DNA of 27,428 bases from a virus (IMGVR_UViG_2802429253_000015); one strand, 5' to 3'. Shown: positions 2,606 through 10,341, counted from the stretch's first letter. Notes: generated from the letters alone by a model not told the origin. Translations and numbers: made by a program.

Positions 2606-2815
2606 TTTTATATTGGCGAGGTGACGTGAGTTAAGTAGAATTGCTGCGGGTGCTTGAGGCTATCTGCCTCGGGCATGAACACCAACGGCAGATAGAGAAA
2701 AGCCCCAGTTAACATTACGCGTCCTGCAAGACGCTTAATATTAATCTGAGGCCATATCTATGCGACACATAGAGATTAGCCTCTTACGGACCGAAAGGTC
2801 AAGGAGAAGCAGGCT

Positions 2816-2971
2816 ATGAAGCAGCAAAAGGTGATGTTAATCGCCCTGATCGTCATCTGTTTAACCGTCATAGTGACGGCACTGGTAACGAGGAAAGACC
2901 TCTGCGAGGTACGAATCCGAACCGGCCAGACGGAGGTCGCTGTCTTCACAGCTTACGAACCTGAGGAGTAA
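2816..2971 (+). CDS. hokD: Hok/Gef-family type I toxin (51 aa), HokD/RelF-like
   Basis: Translation MKQQKVMLIALIVICLTVIVTALVTRKDLCEVRIRTGQTEVAVFTAYEPEE matches the Hok family essentially residue for residue as I recall HokD. AAGGAGAAG lies just upstream of the ATG. A 19-codon leader ORF (2760-2819) ends in ATGA overlapping the hok start. Confidence 0.85.
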   Translation: MKQQKVMLIALIVICLTVIVTALVTRKDLCEVRIRTGQTEVAVFTAYEPEE

Positions 2972-3150
2972 GAGACCAGGCGGGGGAGAAATCCCTCGCC
3001 ACCTCTGATGAGTCAGGCATCCTCAACGCACCCACACTTAACCTTACTAGCAAGTGGCTTTAATATTATTGTAACATTTTCATGCTCGCATGTGTTTTCT
3101 GTTGTTATGAATTAGGTACAGGGTTCTTATGCTTCTTTATCGCGATGAGC

Positions 3151-3173
3151 TTGCAACTGATTGTTAGTTGCTA
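3151..3173. promoter_or_regulatory. Palindrome TTGCAACT-gattgtt-AGTTGCTA upstream of hicA; candidate operator for HicB autoregulation
   Basis: Near-perfect inverted repeat (core GCAACT / AGTTGC at 3153-3171) about 30 bp upstream of the hicA start. Type II antitoxins with RHH domains usually bind palindromes in their own promoter. Confidence 0.4.
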
Positions 3174-3199
3174 TTGGTGGGGGAAGGGATATACTTTAA

Positions 3200-3448
3200 A
3201 TGAGCAAAAAAGAGAAGTTGAGGTGGCGTCTGAATCAGCTTCCAAAGGATTTTACATGGGATGAACTCGTGACGTTGCTTGGGCATTATGGTTTCGAAAT
3301 GCTTACCGGTTCAGGCTCAAGAAGGAAGTTTACCAATGCTAATGGAAGGCTTGTGGCTTTTCATTGCCCACATCCTGGCAATATTGTTAAAGGATATGTG
3401 CTTAAAGAAGTGAAAAATCTTTTGGATGAGATTGATAGTTATGAGTAA
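3200..3448 (+). CDS. hicA: HicA-family toxin (mRNA interferase), 82 aa
   Basis: Motifs ...LTGSGSRRKF... and ...VAFHCPHPGNIVKGYVLKEV... fit the HicA/YcfA pattern (G-S-H...HxP...G...K). The toxin gene precedes the antitoxin, as is characteristic of hicAB loci. Confidence 0.7.
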   Translation: MSKKEKLRWRLNQLPKDFTWDELVTLLGHYGFEMLTGSGSRRKFTNANGRLVAFHCPHPGNIVKGYVLKEVKNLLDEIDSYE

Positions 3449-3917
3449 TGTGCTGAGTTATAAAGGTTATTTTGGCAGCATTGAGGTTTCACTTGAAGAT
3501 AACATACTTCATGGGAAAATTCAGTGCGTAAACGATGTTGTAACCTACGAAGCGGAAACACTGGATGGGTTAAGGGCGGCGTTTGAAGAAGCTGTTACAG
3601 ATTATCTCGACACATGCAAGCAGTTAGGGAAATCTCCTGATAAACCAATGAGTGGTACTTTTAACATCAGAATTGGTCGCGATCTTCATAAGAAAGCGTT
3701 TTTGGCTGCAATGGCGGATAAGACGACGCTTAATGATTATGTGCGTAAAGCTATCGAAGAAAAGATTGCTGACAAAAAAGAAGTTCATTCTCATTCGGAA
3801 AGCGAAGAAACGACAGATACATTCGTTTGGGAAAAAGCATTCTCTTTTGGTTATGTCATTTCCCCTTCAGCAAGAACAAAAAAGAAAGAGGCTGGTGAGC
3901 GATGGATGCGTCACTGA
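3441..3917 (+). CDS. hicB: HicB-family antitoxin with C-terminal ribbon-helix-helix-like segment, 158 aa
   Basis: N-terminal SYKGYFGSIEVSLEDNILHGKI... is the typical HicB-like fold signature, followed by ...SGTFNIRIGRDLHKKAFLAAMADKTTLNDYVRKAIEEK (RHH-like). ATG 3441 overlaps the hicA stop (ATGAGTAA). An alternative start at 3426 is possible. Confidence 0.7.
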   Translation: MSNVLSYKGYFGSIEVSLEDNILHGKIQCVNDVVTYEAETLDGLRAAFEEAVTDYLDTCKQLGKSPDKPMSGTFNIRIGRDLHKKAFLAAMADKTTLNDYVRKAIEEKIADKKEVHSHSESEETTDTFVWEKAFSFGYVISPSARTKKKEAGERWMRH

Positions 3918-4330
3918 TGTTACAAAATATTAAGTATGCTGGTTTCGATATTGTTTCCAGTAGTTTCAAGGATAACACTAGTGATGATGGAGGGTTTTTT
4001 AAGGTCTCGATCGAGGAAGTTAAATTTTCTTCGGGGCGCGATGATGATGGTACCTGTTGGTTCCGGATTGGATTTTCGCCATCGATAAAAGGGTATCCCG
4101 ATAGAGATGGTGCCGGGGATGAAGAACCCTCTTTTGAGCTAAAGATGGAGCTGATTACGGACTTTGATATCATGAATGGAGAGTTGATCGATGAAAAATT
4201 CTTTGTGAAAAATTCATGGTATTTTGAGAATTTCATGTCGTTGACGTTAAAATTGGCGGTGGACTCTGTTCTTAAGCACACGTCGTTAAGCGATATTTAT
4301 TTCCCCTGGTATTCGCCGGACTCAGCTTAA
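3917..4330 (+). CDS. Hypothetical strongly acidic protein (138 aa), third gene of the hicAB operon
   Basis: ATG overlaps the hicB stop in a TGATG arrangement (translational coupling); no recognisable family; followed directly by an intrinsic terminator. An alternative start at 3902 gives 142 aa. Confidence 0.55.
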   Translation: MLQNIKYAGFDIVSSSFKDNTSDDGGFFKVSIEEVKFSSGRDDDGTCWFRIGFSPSIKGYPDRDGAGDEEPSFELKMELITDFDIMNGELIDEKFFVKNSWYFENFMSLTLKLAVDSVLKHTSLSDIYFPWYSPDSA

Positions 4331-4335
4331 TAATC

Positions 4336-4365
4336 AAGCCCGCCGATGCGGGCTTTGTGTTATTC
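4336..4365 (+). terminator. Rho-independent terminator ending the hicA-hicB-orf138 operon
   Basis: Hairpin AAGCCCGC-cgat-GCGGGCTT followed by a T-rich tract (TTGTGTTATT). Confidence 0.6.
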
Positions 4366-4435
4366 CTGTGTTCTGGTTTACAATTCACATGCCAGCCTGA
4401 ACAACTGGCACCTGCTGCGCCAGCAGAGAAAACAG

Positions 4436-4708
4436 ATGGCGCACAAGACCAAATTACACAATTCTGATACCGATCGTGCCAGCAGGCACGATCGGCGTTC
4501 TCATGCATTCAAATATGACTGGTACCAGCATGACCCATGCACTGCAGAACAGGCCGAATGGCTGATTCATAACTACCGCAGACGTGGATACGAGATTAAG
4601 AAAGCCCTCAGCCTCGATTATCGTCACTGGATAATCTACGTCAGGCTGCCGTACTCCGAGCGCCCACCGCGTCCGTCCCGCACATTCCAGCAACGCATCT
4701 GGAGGTAA
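4436..4708 (+). CDS. Hypothetical basic protein (90 aa) upstream of the ydfU-like gene
   Basis: ATG at 4436; its stop at 4706-4708 is 1 nt before the GTG of the next gene, whose GGAGG ribosome-binding site lies inside this ORF's 3' end. Weak ribosome-binding site of its own. Confidence 0.4.
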   Translation: MAHKTKLHNSDTDRASRHDRRSHAFKYDWYQHDPCTAEQAEWLIHNYRRRGYEIKKALSLDYRHWIIYVRLPYSERPPRPSRTFQQRIWR

Positions 4709-4709
4709 C

Positions 4710-5759
4710 GTGAGGGTATTAGTGACTCCTGAAATTGCTCACCGCCTGGGGATTGTACTTTTCAGGCCCGGTCCTGATGCGATGCCTTTGTTTATGCAGG
4801 GGCGTGTGCTGGTGGAGCCTGAACCGAAAAGCATGCGCGGGCTGCCGTCCGGAGTTGTTCCTGCCGTTCGCCAGCCGCTGGCGGAGGATAAATCATTACT
4901 GCCATTTTTCAGCGATGAGCGGGTGATTCGTGCTGCCGGCGGCGCTGGTGCACTGTCTGACTGGCTCCTGCGTCATGTTAAATCCTGCCAGTGGCCTCAT
5001 GGTGACTACCATCACAGCGAAACCGTCATACATCGTTACGGTACCGGCGCGATGGTGTTGTGCTGGCACTGCGACAACCAACTGCGTGACCAGACCTCAG
5101 AATCACTTGAGCAACTTGCTCAACAAAACCTGACAGCATGGATGATTGACGTCATCCGTCACGCAATAAGCGGTGCGCAGGAGCGGGAATTATCGCTGGC
5201 TGAATTATCTTGGTGGGCGGTCTGCAATCAGGTGGCGGACGCACTACCGGAGGCAGTATTACGTCGCTCTCTGGGGGTACGAGAGGAAAAAATCCGCTCT
5301 GTGTACCGCGAAAGCGACATCGTACCGGGAGAACAGACAGCCACCAGCATACTGAAGCAGCGCACAAAAAATCTTGCGCCGTTGCCTCACGTCCACCAGC
5401 AACAAATCCCGCCACAGGAAAAGACGGTGGTCAGCATTGCCGTTGATCCAGAGTCTCCGGAATCTTTCATGAAGCTGCCTAAACGTCGCCGCTGGGTTAA
5501 GGAGAAATACACACGTTGGGTTAAGACACAGCCGTGTGCTTGCTGCGGTATGCCAGCCGACGATCCGCATCATCTGATTGGTCACGGTCAGGGTGGAATG
5601 GGTACAAAAGCGCATGACCTCTTTGTGTTGCCTTTGTGCAGAAAGCATCACGACGAGCTGCATGCGGATACCGTGGCATTTGAAAAGAAGTATGGCTCCC
5701 AGCTGGAGCTGATATTTCGTTTTATCGATCGTGCGCTGGCAATTGGCGTATTGGCGTAA
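4710..5759 (+). CDS. ydfU: YdfU-like DUF968 prophage protein (349 aa), GTG start
   Basis: GGAGG 4 nt upstream of GTG 4710. C-terminal cysteine/histidine cluster ...CACCGMPADDPHHLIGHGQGGMGTKAHDLFVLPLCRKHHDELH... typical of the YdfU/DUF968 family found just upstream of Q in Qin-like prophages. Confidence 0.75.
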   Translation: MRVLVTPEIAHRLGIVLFRPGPDAMPLFMQGRVLVEPEPKSMRGLPSGVVPAVRQPLAEDKSLLPFFSDERVIRAAGGAGALSDWLLRHVKSCQWPHGDYHHSETVIHRYGTGAMVLCWHCDNQLRDQTSESLEQLAQQNLTAWMIDVIRHAISGAQERELSLAELSWWAVCNQVADALPEAVLRRSLGVREEKIRSVYRESDIVPGEQTATSILKQRTKNLAPLPHVHQQQIPPQEKTVVSIAVDPESPESFMKLPKRRRWVKEKYTRWVKTQPCACCGMPADDPHHLIGHGQGGMGTKAHDLFVLPLCRKHHDELHADTVAFEKKYGSQLELIFRFIDRALAIGVLA

Positions 5760-5772
5760 GTGGAGAACGAGC

Positions 5773-6525
5773 ATGAACCTTGAAGCCTTACCAAAATATT
5801 ACTCCCCAAAATCGCCAAAATTGAGCGATGACGCACCGGCGACAGGCTCAGGTGGTTTAACGATTACGGATGTGATGGCTGCGCAGGGGATGGTGCAGTC
5901 GAAAGCACCGCTTGGGTTTGCCTTATTCCTGGCAAAAGTTGGTGTTCAGGATCCTCAGTTTGCTATTGAAGGCCTGCTCAATTACGCGATGGCACTGGGT
6001 AACCCGACATTGAACAAATTGAGTGAAGAAACACGGCTGCAGATTATTCCTTATCTCGTGAATTTTGCCTTTGCTGATTATTCTAGGTCTGCGGCAAGTA
6101 AGGCTCGCTGTGAACATTGTGCAGGTACGGGATTTCATAATGTATTGCGCGAAGTGGTGAAACACTACAGAAGTGGGGAATCTGTTATCAAGGAAGAATG
6201 GGGGAAGGAACTATGTCAGCATTGCCATGGTAAGGGCGAAGTCAGCACAGCGTGCAGAGGGTGTAAGGGTAAAGGTATTGTCCTGGATGAAAAAAGAACC
6301 CGGCTTCATGGCGTACCGGTTTATAAGTTTTGTGGGCGTTGTAATGGAAACAGGTTTAGTCGTTTACCGACCACACTGGCACGACGTCATGTCCAGAAGT
6401 TGGTACCGGACCTGACAGATTATCAGTGGTACAAGGGGTATGCGGACGTCATTGATAAACTGGTAACAAAGTGCTGGCAGGAAGAAGCGTATGCAGAAGC
6501 ACAACAGAGAAAAGTGACAAGATAA
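5773..6525 (+). CDS. Q: Late-gene antiterminator Q (phage 82/Qin QuuQ type), 250 aa
   Basis: N-terminus MNLEALPKYYSPKSPKLSDD... and zinc-binding cluster CEHCAGTGFH...CQHCHGKGEVSTACRGCKGKG... match the 82-type Q antiterminator. Sits immediately upstream of the moron and lysis region. Confidence 0.85.
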   Translation: MNLEALPKYYSPKSPKLSDDAPATGSGGLTITDVMAAQGMVQSKAPLGFALFLAKVGVQDPQFAIEGLLNYAMALGNPTLNKLSEETRLQIIPYLVNFAFADYSRSAASKARCEHCAGTGFHNVLREVVKHYRSGESVIKEEWGKELCQHCHGKGEVSTACRGCKGKGIVLDEKRTRLHGVPVYKFCGRCNGNRFSRLPTTLARRHVQKLVPDLTDYQWYKGYADVIDKLVTKCWQEEAYAEAQQRKVTR

Positions 6526-7286
6526 AAGATTTTCACCGAACGATGGCGACATAACGATTGTATTTTCTAAGGAAACGTGCAAAGAGTTTTCCAATGATGA
6601 GCCTTATATGCATACCGGTGGAAAATATCAATAAGCCGCGCAGAGTGGTTTTTTTGTGGACATAAACTTTGTGCAGAACGGTAACCATTCTGGTTGCCGT
6701 GAATGCAGTTTTTTTACATTGCTGGCTTTTTTAGATTTGTGTTAGTCATTGATATTAACAAGAAGGGGAAAAGACATGCTAAAACGGCAGGATATGAAGG
6801 AAACGGTTATGCGTGAATGTTCCAGTGTGATTAACCATATCATCTTGGGAAGCCATCCTGATGCAGGGAAGAGGTAACAGTAACGTGCATCAATCAGGCT
6901 GCAAATAAATGGCTTACGCCGGAAATCTGGCTATCGATGTATTACCGGTTTGTTACCCATGAAGAAAATTAAGGTGATAACGAAACTGATTTTATAGGTG
7001 TCTTGTCAGAGTGTTGCGACGAAACTGGTGTTGGCAGTGTAGGGAAAATAGTAGGATGAAAATTATAAATTGCTTTAAATGAGATTGATTTCCCTCATGT
7101 TATGAGATATTTGTCTTATATTGCTGGTTAATTATGAGAATTTTTGTAAATCTACAGCAATAAAATCCATATTAATTAAAGCACTAGATGCGTTTCTGAT
7201 TTGTGCATGAAACATACATACCATAATGATTAATTGCATCTATAATTACAGATACAGCATTGTGCTGTTAAAAAACTGGAGTCCCC

Positions 7287-7394
7287 ATGAATACATTATA
7301 TGTAAGTGATTCAAATGAAAAAACTCATGACAGGAATAAAAACAATGAGGATAGTAAGGGTAAGGATAATAAAAAAGACAACCGGAAAGAGTAA
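7287..7394 (+). CDS. Possible 35-aa hydrophilic peptide (MNTLYVSDSNEKTHDRNKNNEDSKGKDNKKDNRKE)
   Basis: GGAG 5 nt upstream of the ATG; too short for the ORF track; low-complexity charged sequence. Confidence 0.25.
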   Translation: MNTLYVSDSNEKTHDRNKNNEDSKGKDNKKDNRKE

Positions 7395-7429
7395 ATAATC
7401 TTTCCTGCATAAAAATACTAGGGTGGAAT

Positions 7430-7549
7430 ATGTCAGAACATCCAGATTTTGATGACCGTAAGCCTGATGATGAGCCCGTTGAGCGTCCTGATGAGGGGCA
7501 ACCATTGAACCCTTTTTCACCGGATGATAAAAGAGAACCTATTATTTAG
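7430..7549 (+). CDS. Possible 39-aa acidic proline-rich peptide (MSEHPDFDDRKPDDEPVERPDEGQPLNPFSPDDKREPII)
   Basis: ATG 7430 with an upstream GGGTGG; a strong intrinsic terminator follows about 50 bp after its stop. Confidence 0.3.
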   Translation: MSEHPDFDDRKPDDEPVERPDEGQPLNPFSPDDKREPII

Positions 7550-7602
7550 ATATAGCAGAATATAGCCGTTTAAAGTAGGTTGTGTTTTGTTGCTATCCTT
7601 AA

Positions 7603-7628
7603 GCCACCTCCACAGGAGGTGGTTTTTT
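7603..7628 (+). terminator. Rho-independent terminator
   Basis: Perfect hairpin CCACCTCC-aca-GGAGGTGG followed by TTTTTT. Confidence 0.8.
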
Positions 7629-7685
7629 ACTAATGGAACATTAATTGGTAGATGTGATTGTGTACGACTTATGGGAGGCTTAAGA

Positions 7686-7871
7686 TTATTTTCTGCCAAT
7701 AATAAAACCAAGCGTTAACCCTATGCTTAGAGCGACCACCACGCTAGTCAGTGGATAATTTCTAAATTTATCTTTAACGTTTTCTTTGCCTGCCTGCAAA
7801 GCATCGTCAGCACATGATACATATTTTTTGACAGTATTAACTATTTCGTTTTCAGATTGATTTGAAGTCAT
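7686..7871 (-). CDS. DUF883 (ElaB/YqjD/YgaM)-like C-terminally membrane-anchored small protein, 61 aa
   Basis: AGGA 8 nt upstream of ATG 7871. C-terminus ...PLTSVVVALSIGLTLGFIIGRK resembles the ElaB/YqjD membrane anchor. Shorter than typical family members, so the assignment is tentative. Confidence 0.45.
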   Translation of the reverse strand: MTSNQSENEIVNTVKKYVSCADDALQAGKENVKDKFRNYPLTSVVVALSIGLTLGFIIGRK

Positions 7872-8327
7872 GTTTGAAGTCCTGATGTTAAGTGGCTTTT
7901 TAATTATAGCAGATATGCTTTCAATGATAGGGCGGAGAGCTGTTATTGAGGTGATACTATGACCACTCAATCAACATTACATAAAATGACGTTTACTCCT
8001 GTTTGGCACAGTAGCAGAATTTTGCTTCTGCTACTGAAGTCGCTTTAGCACTAGAATATGCTGATGGATAAAGCAGTTCAGCGTATGTACTGCGTCATGC
8101 ATATCGGTCTTGCAGATATGACGAGAAGGGGAGACAAGGTGTGTGTAATGTAGAAGTCTTTAAAGTGCTGCCTGGGATAACTCTATGCTGAAGTGCAATT
8201 GATAAAAGTAACACGATAAAGGTTTTTCAATGAAGATGGCAACGTGATGCTTGCATTTTTCAAAAAATATGGATAAAATCCCCTCAATGATGGGCTTTGT
8301 ATATCTGATGTTTAGAAAGAAAATTAG

Positions 8328-8352
8328 AAAACCCGCTGATGAGCGGGTTTTG
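8328..8352. terminator. Bidirectional-looking intrinsic terminator (AAACCCGCT-gatg-AGCGGGTTT) downstream of the cspF-like gene
   Basis: GC-rich hairpin flanked by an A-run upstream and a T-run downstream. Confidence 0.6.
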
Positions 8353-8643
8353 TGCTTTAAATGGGGCAATGGTGATGTTGAACCTCATCCCGGGACTCAT
8401 GTCTGTTAACTTATTATTTAGCTGGTGACTTAGTTATTTGCCTGATGTTTAAAATGTTTTCTTCCAGTACAATGTCCCTAAACACAATGAGTCTGCTTAT
8501 TATATTATTAGCAGAGCTATTACGGCCAAAGTACAGCATAAGCTTTTAAAGCCAATCAACCAGTCATCAAGGCAGACGGGGTTATTCATAAAAACTCTCC
8601 ATGTGTGATCCGATGGGGCTTAAAGTAAAAGCTTTAATATAGT

Positions 8644-8856
8644 TCATGAAAGATAAACATTGGCAGCTGAAGGTCCACGTAGACCATTGATTCGGCAAAA
8701 TTCCACGCGTAATCCTGTGGTAATTTCTTCTGCATCGCGGAGATTGAGAGCAGAAACGTGCAGCTGGACATCGATACGGCCATCGGATGGTATGATAAGA
8801 CCTTTGCCGCTTTTGTAGTCAAAGGTTTTGACAATTCCTGTCATTTTACGGGACAA
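8644..8856 (-). CDS. cspF: CspA-family cold-shock protein paralog, CspF/CspH-like (70 aa), probable TTG start
   Basis: Translation [27 protein letters not shown]... has the cold-shock-domain layout and the [14 protein letters not shown]-terminus I recall for CspF. AAGGA sits 7 nt upstream of the TTG at 8856. Confidence 0.8.
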
Positions 8857-9156
8857 AAAAATTCCTTAATACTGATAACTTGGCGCACTATACACACGTT
8901 CCTGAAGAAAGCTATAGTTTTTTGATGGGGTTGAAGATGGCTGGATGTCTAAAATAAACATTGCTTCATATGTTCAACTATGAGTTAATGATTGCGTCGG
9001 TTTGAAGAACAGACGATATACGAAGTAGTTTACTAAAGCAGTTCTCATTTCAGGTGTTATTCACTTATTCCTTCTTTGAGTCTCTCCAATTAAGTACGAA
9101 GTCGTTTCTGTTATACAAACCATTTATGCCGAAAGGCTCAAGTTAAGGAATGTAGA

Positions 9157-9372
9157 ATGTCAAATAAAATGACTGGTTTAGTAAAATGGTTTAACGCTGA
9201 TAAAGGTTTTGGCTTTATTTCTCCTGTTGATGGTAGTAAAGATGTGTTTGTGCATTTTTCTGCGATTCAGAATGATAATTATCGAACCTTATTTGAAGGT
9301 CAAAAGGTTACCTTCTCTGTAGAGAGTGGTGCTAAAGGTCCTGCAGCAGCAAATGTCATCATTAATGATTAA
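9157..9372 (+). CDS. cspB: CspA-family cold-shock protein paralog, CspB/CspI-like (71 aa)
   Basis: Translation [38 protein letters not shown]... carries the canonical RNP1/RNP2 motifs (KGFGFI, VFVHF). Divergent from the cspF-like gene across a ~300-bp intergenic region, as in Qin. Confidence 0.85.
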
Positions 9373-9653
9373 AATTCATAGTTTGTCTGTATACGATAAC
9401 GAAGAAGGCTGATGCCTGAGTGGAGATACAGACAGAGTGGCGAATATTGGATCTCTTTAATAAAGAGTAAGGAGGTCCAATACATGAAACAATGGCCAGC
9501 ATATTTGGTAATAACTTAATCAGGAAAAGTATGCTAACCATTGTGGTGAAGTGCAGGTTTGCTGCATGAATAGTTTTACAGCAGAAGCTAACTGCTGGCA
9601 TAGCAAAACAAAGTGCGTAAGTGGATGACTCTCACAAAAAGCACCACAATATT

Positions 9654-9680
9654 AAACCCGCTCAGGCGGGTTTTTTATTA
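9654..9680. terminator. Intrinsic terminator (AAACCCGC-tcag-GCGGGTTTTTT) between the cspB-like gene and the convergent Zn-ribbon gene
   Basis: Perfect 8-bp GC-rich stem followed by a T-run; the A-rich 5' flank suggests it may work in both directions. Confidence 0.7.
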
Positions 9681-9735
9681 TCTGCTTTAAATATATTATT
9701 AAAATATAAAAAATACTTGTTGCGAATAAAATCAA

Positions 9736-9906
9736 TCAGGCTACAGCTTTAAGATTTGTCTGGAATACTTTGTTGCAATGAGGGCAGATCAAAAGGGCAC
9801 CTTTTTGTACTCTTGAAAAACTGTGTTCTGACTCTTGGGTGCAGTTTGGGCAGGAACATTTAACGAGATAATTACGGCGTGATTTTGAGTCTTTACGTTC
9901 TGACAT
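9736..9906 (-). CDS. Small zinc-ribbon protein (56 aa; CxxC...CxxC), hypothetical
   Basis: MSERKDSKSRRNYLVKCSCPNCTQESEHSFSRVQKGALLICPHCNKVF... has two CxxC pairs. The start is taken at the internal ATG (9906) rather than the longer ORF in the track. Confidence 0.45.
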   Translation of the reverse strand: MSERKDSKSRRNYLVKCSCPNCTQESEHSFSRVQKGALLICPHCNKVFQTNLKAVA

Positions 9907-10125
9907 AGGCTTTTCCTGTATAAATGGCCGTATACAGTACACTAAATATGAAAACATTTCTCTTATTATTAATTAATATATGATTTTCTTTCAAAATAAT
10001 TAACCACATTTTTAATGTGTATGTTTTTTTAGCGCCGTTGAGAACAACGTGTGCTGTAAAAACTACCCCGTAGACTCCGATATTTTCAAACATATTGCAC
10101 CATCCGTGTACATCGGGGTGAGGAT

Positions 10126-10341
10126 ATGAAATCAATGGATAAGTTAACAACAGGTGTTGCGTATGGCACATCGGCGGGTAATGCTGGTTTCTGGGCATTG
10201 CAGTTACTCGATAAAGTAACTCCGTCACAGTGGGCTGCAATCGGTGTGCTGGGTAGCCTGGTTTTTGGCCTGCTGACGTATCTGACAAATCTTTATTTCA
10301 AGATTAAAGAAGACAGGCGTAAGGCCGCGAGAGGAGAGTAA
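10126..10341 (+). CDS. S: Class II holin of phage-21 S21 (pinholin) type with dual-start motif, 71 aa
   Basis: [55 protein letters not shown]... shows two transmembrane segments and the two start codons M1 (antiholin, with extra Lys) and M4 (holin). GGTGAGGA ribosome-binding site. Confidence 0.85.

Follow-up and report, generated by a model that had tools for sequence, protein, structure and literature searches.

A probable HicAB-type toxin-antitoxin-chaperone module on a moron cassette of a lambdoid prophage

Known chaperone-controlled systems and the layout of the locus

SecB-like chaperones that accompany toxin-antitoxin pairs of the HigBA, MqsRA and, less often, ribbon-helix-helix (RHH)-type HicAB families were catalogued in 2012 (PMC3581621). 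For the HicAB type, Bordes et al. 2016 experimentally validated the Methylomonas methanica MC09 toxin-antitoxin-chaperone (TAC) system (Metme_2813/2812 plus chaperone), in which the chaperone is required for toxin control and the chaperone-addiction (ChAD) element of the antitoxin HicB was mapped to residues 119-159; furthermore, ChAD elements are transferable (PMC5105189). Here, we analysed a stretch of 27,428 nucleotides from a virus (IMGVR_UViG_2802429253_000015; the whole stretch is called the window below). Three of its genes, hicA, hicB and a third gene that we call hicC, very probably form a HicAB-type TAC module on a prophage moron cassette.

Three E. coli TACs, CmdTAC, MqsRAC and HigBAC, protect against phage (Vassallo et al. 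2022, PMC9519451; Mets et al. 2024, bioRxiv 10.1101/2024.02.24.581848). Of these, HigBAC is encoded by a lambdoid prophage, downstream of cI. The chaperone of this system detects a structural protein of the phage: it recognises aromatic patterns that occur both in the ChAD and in the major tail protein of lambda. Hybrid TACs are functional as well (bioRxiv 10.1101/2024.02.24.581848). In addition, a homologue of the third protein in phage mEp234 is labelled 'HicC chaperone' in a 2025 GenBank record (PV340539). This name is database annotation only, and our literature searches on HicC/HicABC and on the mEp234 annotation found no relevant publication. SecB and chaperones are absent from Gerdes' survey of HicA contexts.

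A first-pass annotation of the window had noted that canonical hicAB loci are two-gene units. This is true, but the three-gene exception is already a known class. Its proposal that the locus might be something undescribed does not stand, given the 2012 catalogue, the system validated in 2016 and the HicC chaperone named in mEp234. The system is of a known kind, and the locus is a new, divergent HicAB-type TAC. Its features are as follows.

3200-3448, plus strand: hicA, HicA-family toxin, 82 amino acids (aa), isoelectric point (pI) 9.17; Pfam PF07927, 5.4e-10, above cut-off; phrog_8887 'toxin', 4.6e-26; RefSeq HicA family toxin
3441-3794, plus strand: hicB core; Pfam PF05534, 1.3e-17; phrog_9151 spans aa 1-118
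3795-3917, plus strand: hicB C-terminal tail and stop codon, residues 119-158; putative ChAD region
3917-4330, plus strand: hicC, divergent SecB-like TAC chaperone (predicted fold), 137 aa, pI 4.31
3153-3171: operator-like palindrome GCAACT-N7-AGTTGC, probable HicB (RHH) site overlapping the core promoter
3168-3195, plus strand: sigma-70 promoter-like site TTGCTA-16-TATACT, consensus scan, 9/12 matches
3151-3156: possible alternative -35, TTGCAA
4336-4365, plus strand: intrinsic terminator, stem 4336-4355 (8 bp, 6 GC), then TTTGTGTTATT; z = -3.3 versus shuffles
3122-4337, plus strand: core mobile block with promoter/operator and the three genes; blastn match to L002 (NZ_CP148427) 5001-6222, 89%
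About 3044-4347, plus strand: full inserted cassette relative to the hokD-DUF968 prophage backbone, from alignment to the empty site L107
3782: recombination breakpoint that separates toxin and antitoxin core from tail and chaperone, at hicB residue ~115

The three genes are co-directional, in the order toxin, antitoxin, third gene, and a single promoter region and a single terminator enclose them. The full hicB gene (3441-3917) encodes 158 aa. It overlaps hicA by 8 nt (ATGAGTAA), and its TGA has A3917 in common with the ATG of hicC (TGATG, 3915-3919; 1-nt overlap). The first-pass annotation had these positions and overlaps right but made the third protein 138 aa long instead of 137. An alternative hicC ATG lies upstream at 3902, and the relatives begin at the ML... 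of 3917. The terminator, described earlier as clean and intrinsic, was confirmed by the 8-bp stem and the comparison with shuffles.

The M. methanica TAC resembles the locus in its identical three-gene order, its HicAB warhead, its RHH-type HicB and the position of its ChAD (residues 119-159, against 119-158 for the window tail), a likeness judged from the published description and not from sequence. However, its chaperone is a recognisable SecB homologue, whereas HicC of the window escapes Pfam SecB, and it lies on a methanotroph chromosome and not in an enterobacterial prophage. In lambda, the slot downstream of cI holds rexAB. Phages mEp234, mEp506 and HK106 (PV340539, PV340542; phrog_19522) have the same HicC family (32% identity, HMM E 9e-38; HMM, hidden Markov model) in the same operon, with the operator palindrome at -48 and in a lambdoid phage context. 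Their copies fill the rexAB slot, downstream of cI; the window copy, in contrast, lies between hokD and DUF968.

The M. tuberculosis HigB1-HigA1-SecB(TA) system (Rv1955-1957, 5MTW) has HigBA instead of HicAB, shows just 7-10% identity, and was described as stress-responsive and not prophage-borne. HigBAC (NT1F31), CmdTAC and MqsRAC are E. coli prophage-encoded TACs, and HigBAC occupies a variable locus downstream of cI. In these systems the chaperone is the phage sensor, and warhead and sensor are modular, which fits the natural swap of tail and chaperone in the window cassette (see below). However, their toxins are the HigB RNase, the CmdT ADP-ribosyltransferase and MqsR, whereas that of the window is HicA, and the HigA ChAD has 96 aa with four repeats in contrast to the 40-aa window tail. 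The canonical two-gene HicAB systems of E. coli, B. pseudomallei and Y. pestis share the HicA and HicB families and RHH-mediated autoregulation with the locus. They differ in having neither tail nor chaperone, and in the essential His of the G-S-H motif, where the window HicA has Arg.

The antitoxin tail and its coupled third gene

Members of the HicA family are translation-independent mRNA interferases. The HicA of the window is small, basic and encoded 5' of hicB, and it scores 39.7 bits with Pfam HicA_toxin (cut-off 27). HicB scores 63.9 bits with Pfam HicB (cut-off 21), so that both gene assignments of the first-pass annotation stand above the Pfam cut-offs. HicAB is, with HigBA and MqsRA, one of the canonical type II toxin-antitoxin families that occur in TACs. 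The PHROGs family 'HicB-like antitoxin' covers residues 1-118 of HicB and leaves a tail of 40 residues beyond. The AlphaFold 2 model is confident for residues 1-110 (HicB domain and RHH helices); two helices (80-92 and 97-109) follow a beta-rich N-terminal domain, as in the RHH type, and the top Foldseek matches are the B. pseudomallei HicB structures 6g26/6g1n (probability 1.0).

In the same model, residues 122-158 have a predicted local distance difference test (pLDDT) score below 50 and no secondary structure, and this segment is predicted to be disordered. The tail contains six aromatic residues (F128, W130, F134, F136, Y138 and W155). In addition, short HicBs stop 4-15 residues past the RHH core, and two-gene HicBs have no tail. 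The ratio of nonsynonymous to synonymous substitution rates (dN/dS) of the tail is 0.55-0.98, close to free evolution, and the hicB core is under purifying selection. By analogy with described TACs, such a tail is what would be expected of a ChAD region. The long tail had already been pointed out as a lead, and this was well judged.

To relate the tail to the third gene, 80 HicB loci from reference genomes of many phyla were combined with the loci already collected, which gave 84 non-redundant loci. For each locus, the tail length was measured and a gene starting at the HicB stop was sought; a tail of at least 35 aa was taken as long. We found that 33 of the 34 long-tailed HicBs have a stop-overlapping third open reading frame (ORF) of 101-182 aa, and that either the HicC-family HMM or Pfam SecB identifies 26 of those 33 third ORFs as SecB-like. 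In contrast, a SecB-like neighbour was found for none of the 50 short-tailed HicBs. The association between tail and third gene has a Fisher p of ~5e-15, a value that is uncorrected for phylogeny, and the loci are not phylogenetically independent. Because long-tailed HicBs nearly always have a coupled third gene and short-tailed ones have no SecB-like one, we assign the locus to the HicAB-type TACs. The neighbourhood survey proposed in the first-pass annotation therefore supports its suggestion of a tripartite module with a coupled third component, since hicAB homologues do recur with the third gene.

A third gene in the same position passes the Pfam SecB threshold in a Verrucomicrobia metagenome-assembled genome (L040, 5e-8), and those of L048 and L053 give sub-threshold Pfam SecB matches. 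Furthermore, HMM iteration on a small database connects the HicC family to L064/L048. One short HicB (P0062, 83% identity) had been considered as a tail-less relative; it is actually a frameshifted TAC locus and was left out as a control.

Some long-tailed HicBs have coupled third genes that belong neither to the HicC family nor to Pfam SecB. These are L033 1044-1391, L041 1863-2168 and L084 2973-3299, and further L034 3001-3435, L037 2970-3401, L042 1851-2276 and L105 3001-3438. A family of ~100-115 aa with the common 'LKEL.E..VKH...HEG' occurs among them. Such genes may encode additional divergent chaperones, or partners of another kind.

The structure model of HicC is confident and has a predicted SecB fold, not a DNA-mimic architecture. 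Profile and structure searches had been recommended for this protein and for the HicB tail. The profile searches of the third protein came back empty, with no match in Pfam, NCBIfam or PADLOC and a PHROG family of unknown function as the sole library match, and it was the structure prediction that gave the SecB fold and the disordered tail. An exhaustive HMMER search found only 46 HicC relatives among 1.84 billion representatives. In nine diverse representatives of the family, down to 23% identity, HicB is directly upstream in all. The dN/dS of hicC is 0.10-0.17, which indicates purifying selection.

In addition, the HicC-family HMM matches mEp237 gp34 (3e-20) and HK639 gp47 (1e-17). These genes belong to a second type of TAC-like trio downstream of cI, mEp237 gp36-gp35-gp34 (L006 2173-3414) and HK639 gp49-gp48-gp47 (L007 2131-3222). 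Besides the HicC-family chaperone, it comprises a toxin candidate without a Pfam match and a helix-turn-helix (HTH)-Xre antitoxin that is extended at its C terminus. Thus, one chaperone family serves at least two toxin-antitoxin warheads, and its presence behind an unrelated toxin and HTH-antitoxin pair shows the modularity that is typical of chaperones in TACs.

Mobility, recombination and regulation of the cassette

Among 5426 complete E. coli genomes, 13 carry the cassette, and in at least 2294 the flanks are contiguous (empty site; both flanks joined as one query). The empty site L107 aligns to window positions 2700-3043 and 4348-4800 with 7 nt between. As the alignment resumes at 4348, within the stem, the backbone contributes the 3' half of the terminator. 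The GC content of the cassette is 0.409, compared with 0.48 in the left and 0.52 in the right flank. The earlier description of an AT-rich acquired moron is borne out by this composition and by the empty sites. The surrounding genes are hokD, DUF551, DUF968 and antiterminator Q, and thus the prophage is lambdoid (Qin-like). The cassette is a rare mobile insertion, an acquired moron in a lambdoid prophage. A megablast search of the cassette against phage genomes gave no match.

In NZ_CP148427 (L002), the block 3122-4337 is located elsewhere, directly downstream of cI. This rexAB slot also holds more distant versions in three phages (mEp234, HK106 and mEp506), a Rahnella plasmid prophage and metagenomic prophages, and other relatives adjoin an integrase, an IS481 transposase or DUF968. 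The window and L002 differ by 4 mismatches in 3182-3781 (~99.3% identity) and by 122 in 3782-4337 (~78% identity). At the corresponding HicB residue (~115), dS between the window and this cI-linked copy rises from 0.03-0.04 to 0.47-1.09. Because the jump in mismatches and dS at 3782 is so sharp, we conclude that tail and chaperone were exchanged as a unit, independently of the toxin and antitoxin core.

The reading frames of all three genes are intact in the window and in 12 other E. coli genomes. Decayed copies also exist: one E. coli genome has a frameshifted HicB tail (P0054; NZ_CP148426, hit H11), a metagenomic contig a frameshifted HicB (L023 2501-3091) and Citrobacter murliniae a split HicB (L030 2501-2960).

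The first-pass annotation had reported a near-perfect palindrome in front of hicA as a possible operator. The repeat is more modest (GCAACT-N7-AGTTGC, 3153-3171), and by itself it is unremarkable, as a 6-bp inverted repeat is present in 34% of 130-nt windows here; its operator-like character is upheld by conservation. In 11 of 11 diverged loci examined, the palindrome lies at -47/-48 from the hicA start while the surrounding sequence is unconserved. Furthermore, GCAAC-N9-GTTGC occurs upstream of hicA at the same distance in 41 of 97 non-redundant HicAB loci, and only 2 other matches were found in 475 kb. The loci concerned range over Enterobacterales, Geobacter, Verrucomicrobia and Clostridia, two-gene and three-gene systems alike. 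This conservation is far above chance and gives strong comparative support for an operator, which is presumably bound by the RHH domain of HicB. No description of a GCAAC-N9-GTTGC operator was found in the literature searched.

The promoter is less clear, and the exact positions of its hexamers are uncertain; their placement relative to the palindrome is likewise tentative. The sigma-70 scan score at 3168-3195 is no higher than the shuffled expectation, and a promoter there would put the transcription start at the ATG. For these reasons, it was not relied on.

It should be noted that hokD, a type I toxin gene (2816-2971), lies just 5' of the cassette, and that the cassette was inserted where the hok region ends. 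An ORF at 4346-4708, located between cassette and DUF968, matches phrog_1212 (unknown function) in its last 66 residues only; RefSeq gives a shorter 90-aa version of it in relatives. An antisense ORF of 141 aa (3856-4281, minus strand) lies opposite hicC, with its openness as sole support, and it was discounted because conservation and fold sit in the plus-strand frame.

The most AT-rich part of the window is 6526-10125 (GC 0.373, AT-richer than the cassette), which has no ORF longer than 110 aa. From reading the translations, we take two of its genes to be cold-shock-protein-like (8644-8856, minus strand; 9157-9372, plus strand), one ORF to be DUF883/ElaB-like (7686-7970, minus strand) and one small ORF to be zinc-ribbon-like (9736-9957, minus strand). 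A presumably holin-like gene (10126-10341), named in the same way, follows this stretch, and the arrangement is reminiscent of the Qin prophage.

Proposed mechanism, rival explanations and meaning

Apart from a chaperone with sequence similarity to SecB, the locus shows each testable feature that defines a TAC. We propose that HicA is the toxin, presumably an RNase, and that the N-terminal domain of HicB would neutralise it, while the RHH domain would repress the operon at the GCAACT-N7-AGTTGC operator. The disordered, aromatic-rich tail of ~40 residues would act as the ChAD, making the antitoxin prone to aggregation or degradation unless HicC binds it. HicC, a very divergent chaperone of predicted SecB fold, would hold the tail, and HicA would meanwhile stay silenced by HicB. 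On the model of E. coli HigBAC and CmdTAC, a protein from an incoming phage would probably compete with the tail for HicC, and HicA would be freed and the infection aborted. We infer the dependence of HicB on HicC, and the binding of the tail by HicC and the oligomeric state of HicC are presumed in the same way. The phage trigger and the defence role are suggested by the E. coli systems and also by the position of the relatives in the cI-rex slot. On this analogy, the module is probably a prophage defence moron.

Several results, besides the shared ancestry of the surveyed loci, weigh against this interpretation. Pfam SecB (PF02556) matches 0 of 43 HicC family members, the 43-member HicC profile found no match among PDB sequences, and the hhalign comparison of HicC with E. 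coli SecB is not significant (probability 0.2). Since these searches gave no sequence-level link between HicC and SecB, the SecB assignment draws on the predicted fold and the gene position. In addition, PADLOC has no matching model for the cassette, and our literature searches found no experiment that addresses phage defence by a HicAB-type TAC.

The toxin raises a further objection. In B. pseudomallei HicA, His24 of the G-S-H motif is essential (PMC3969222). The window HicA has no canonical G-S-H but G39-S40-R41 (3314-3322), and RNase activity is not guaranteed because Arg41 replaces the essential His. Arg is found in the His24 position in 61 of 73 HicAs of this subfamily, two-gene systems included, and the others sometimes have Gly, Tyr or other residues. 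An H-x-P-H-P motif is invariant in the subfamily (H55-C-P-H58-P, 3362-3376, in the window), and His58 of its P-H-P corresponds to residue 40 of the B. pseudomallei HicA, which was reported to be near His24 (PMC3969222). The catalytic residue of this subfamily may, to judge from the alignment, differ or have moved.

The same evidence bears on the rival explanations. The locus could be a decaying remnant in which at least one of the three genes is non-functional, as the frameshifted and split copies elsewhere (P0054/H11, L023, L030) and the missing His24 equivalent would allow. However, the three frames are intact in the window and the 12 other genomes, purifying selection acts on hicC and on the hicB core, both operator and coupling signals are preserved, and the His-to-Arg change is subfamily-wide and no local lesion; we therefore consider decay very unlikely. 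It is still less probable that HicC serves prophage or host proteins as a general chaperone of SecB-like type, in export or folding, and is not specifically tied to HicB, although it has the predicted fold of a housekeeping chaperone and solitary phage SecB homologues exist (PhiCD119, mentioned in PMC3581621). The first-pass annotation, which had correctly called the third protein very acidic (pI 4.31; 25 D+E against 13 K+R), thought of a DNA mimic or anti-defence protein, that is, of an independent cargo riding behind hicAB, and the lack of any known family model agrees with this. But E. coli SecB is equally acidic (pI 4.26), and for this reason acidity is not evidence for a DNA mimic. Moreover, HicC is confidently modelled with a SecB fold, its gene is start/stop-coupled to hicB, and it is found only behind long-tailed antitoxins and co-recombines with the tail. 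On the fold, the coupling and the co-occurrence with the tail, this candidate was rejected, and we regard it as scarcely credible.

A different question is what a TAC module would do here. It may serve not phage defence but stress-responsive growth control or prophage stabilisation (addiction), the kind of role originally suggested for M. tuberculosis HigBA1-SecB. The founding TAC was described as stress-responsive (PMC3581621), the window cassette adjoins the addiction-type toxin gene hokD outside the cI-rex slot, and the published work contains no defence experiment on the HicAB type that we could find. On the other hand, the E. coli TACs tested so far (CmdTAC, MqsRAC, HigBAC) protect against phage, and close relatives of the cassette occupy the rexAB defence slot downstream of cI. 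Furthermore, the sensor half, tail plus chaperone, has undergone exchange, and its divergence is much faster than that of the toxin half, as an arms race predicts. We think a stress or addiction role in place of defence unlikely, though it deserves to be kept in mind, and the two roles are mutually compatible.

The results on the HicAB-type TAC module can be joined into a wider interpretation, which we offer tentatively as possible but somewhat doubtful. The HicC family would be a distinct SecB-fold lineage of phage sensors, unseen by Pfam SecB and PADLOC, that serves at least two lambdoid-prophage warheads (HicAB, and the toxin and HTH pair of mEp237/HK639) and that passes from one to the other along with the antitoxin tail, as a natural plug-in sensor cassette. 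HicA would cleave RNA via a relocated catalytic histidine (P-H-P) that replaces G-S-H. If this is true, the cassette would offer a compact, naturally modular means to study how the range of phages that a TAC detects depends on chaperone specificity.

A 'hypothetical protein' of 13 E. coli genomes and several reference phages becomes a predicted TAC chaperone, and TAC searches through Pfam SecB or PADLOC overlook the whole HicC lineage. The breakpoint at the junction of HicB core and tail is natural evidence of a modularity so far shown just by engineering (ChAD grafting, hybrid TACs). In addition, the conserved GCAAC-N9-GTTGC gives a simple handle to find and study this HicAB subfamily. The working picture of TAC systems is thereby extended, not changed.

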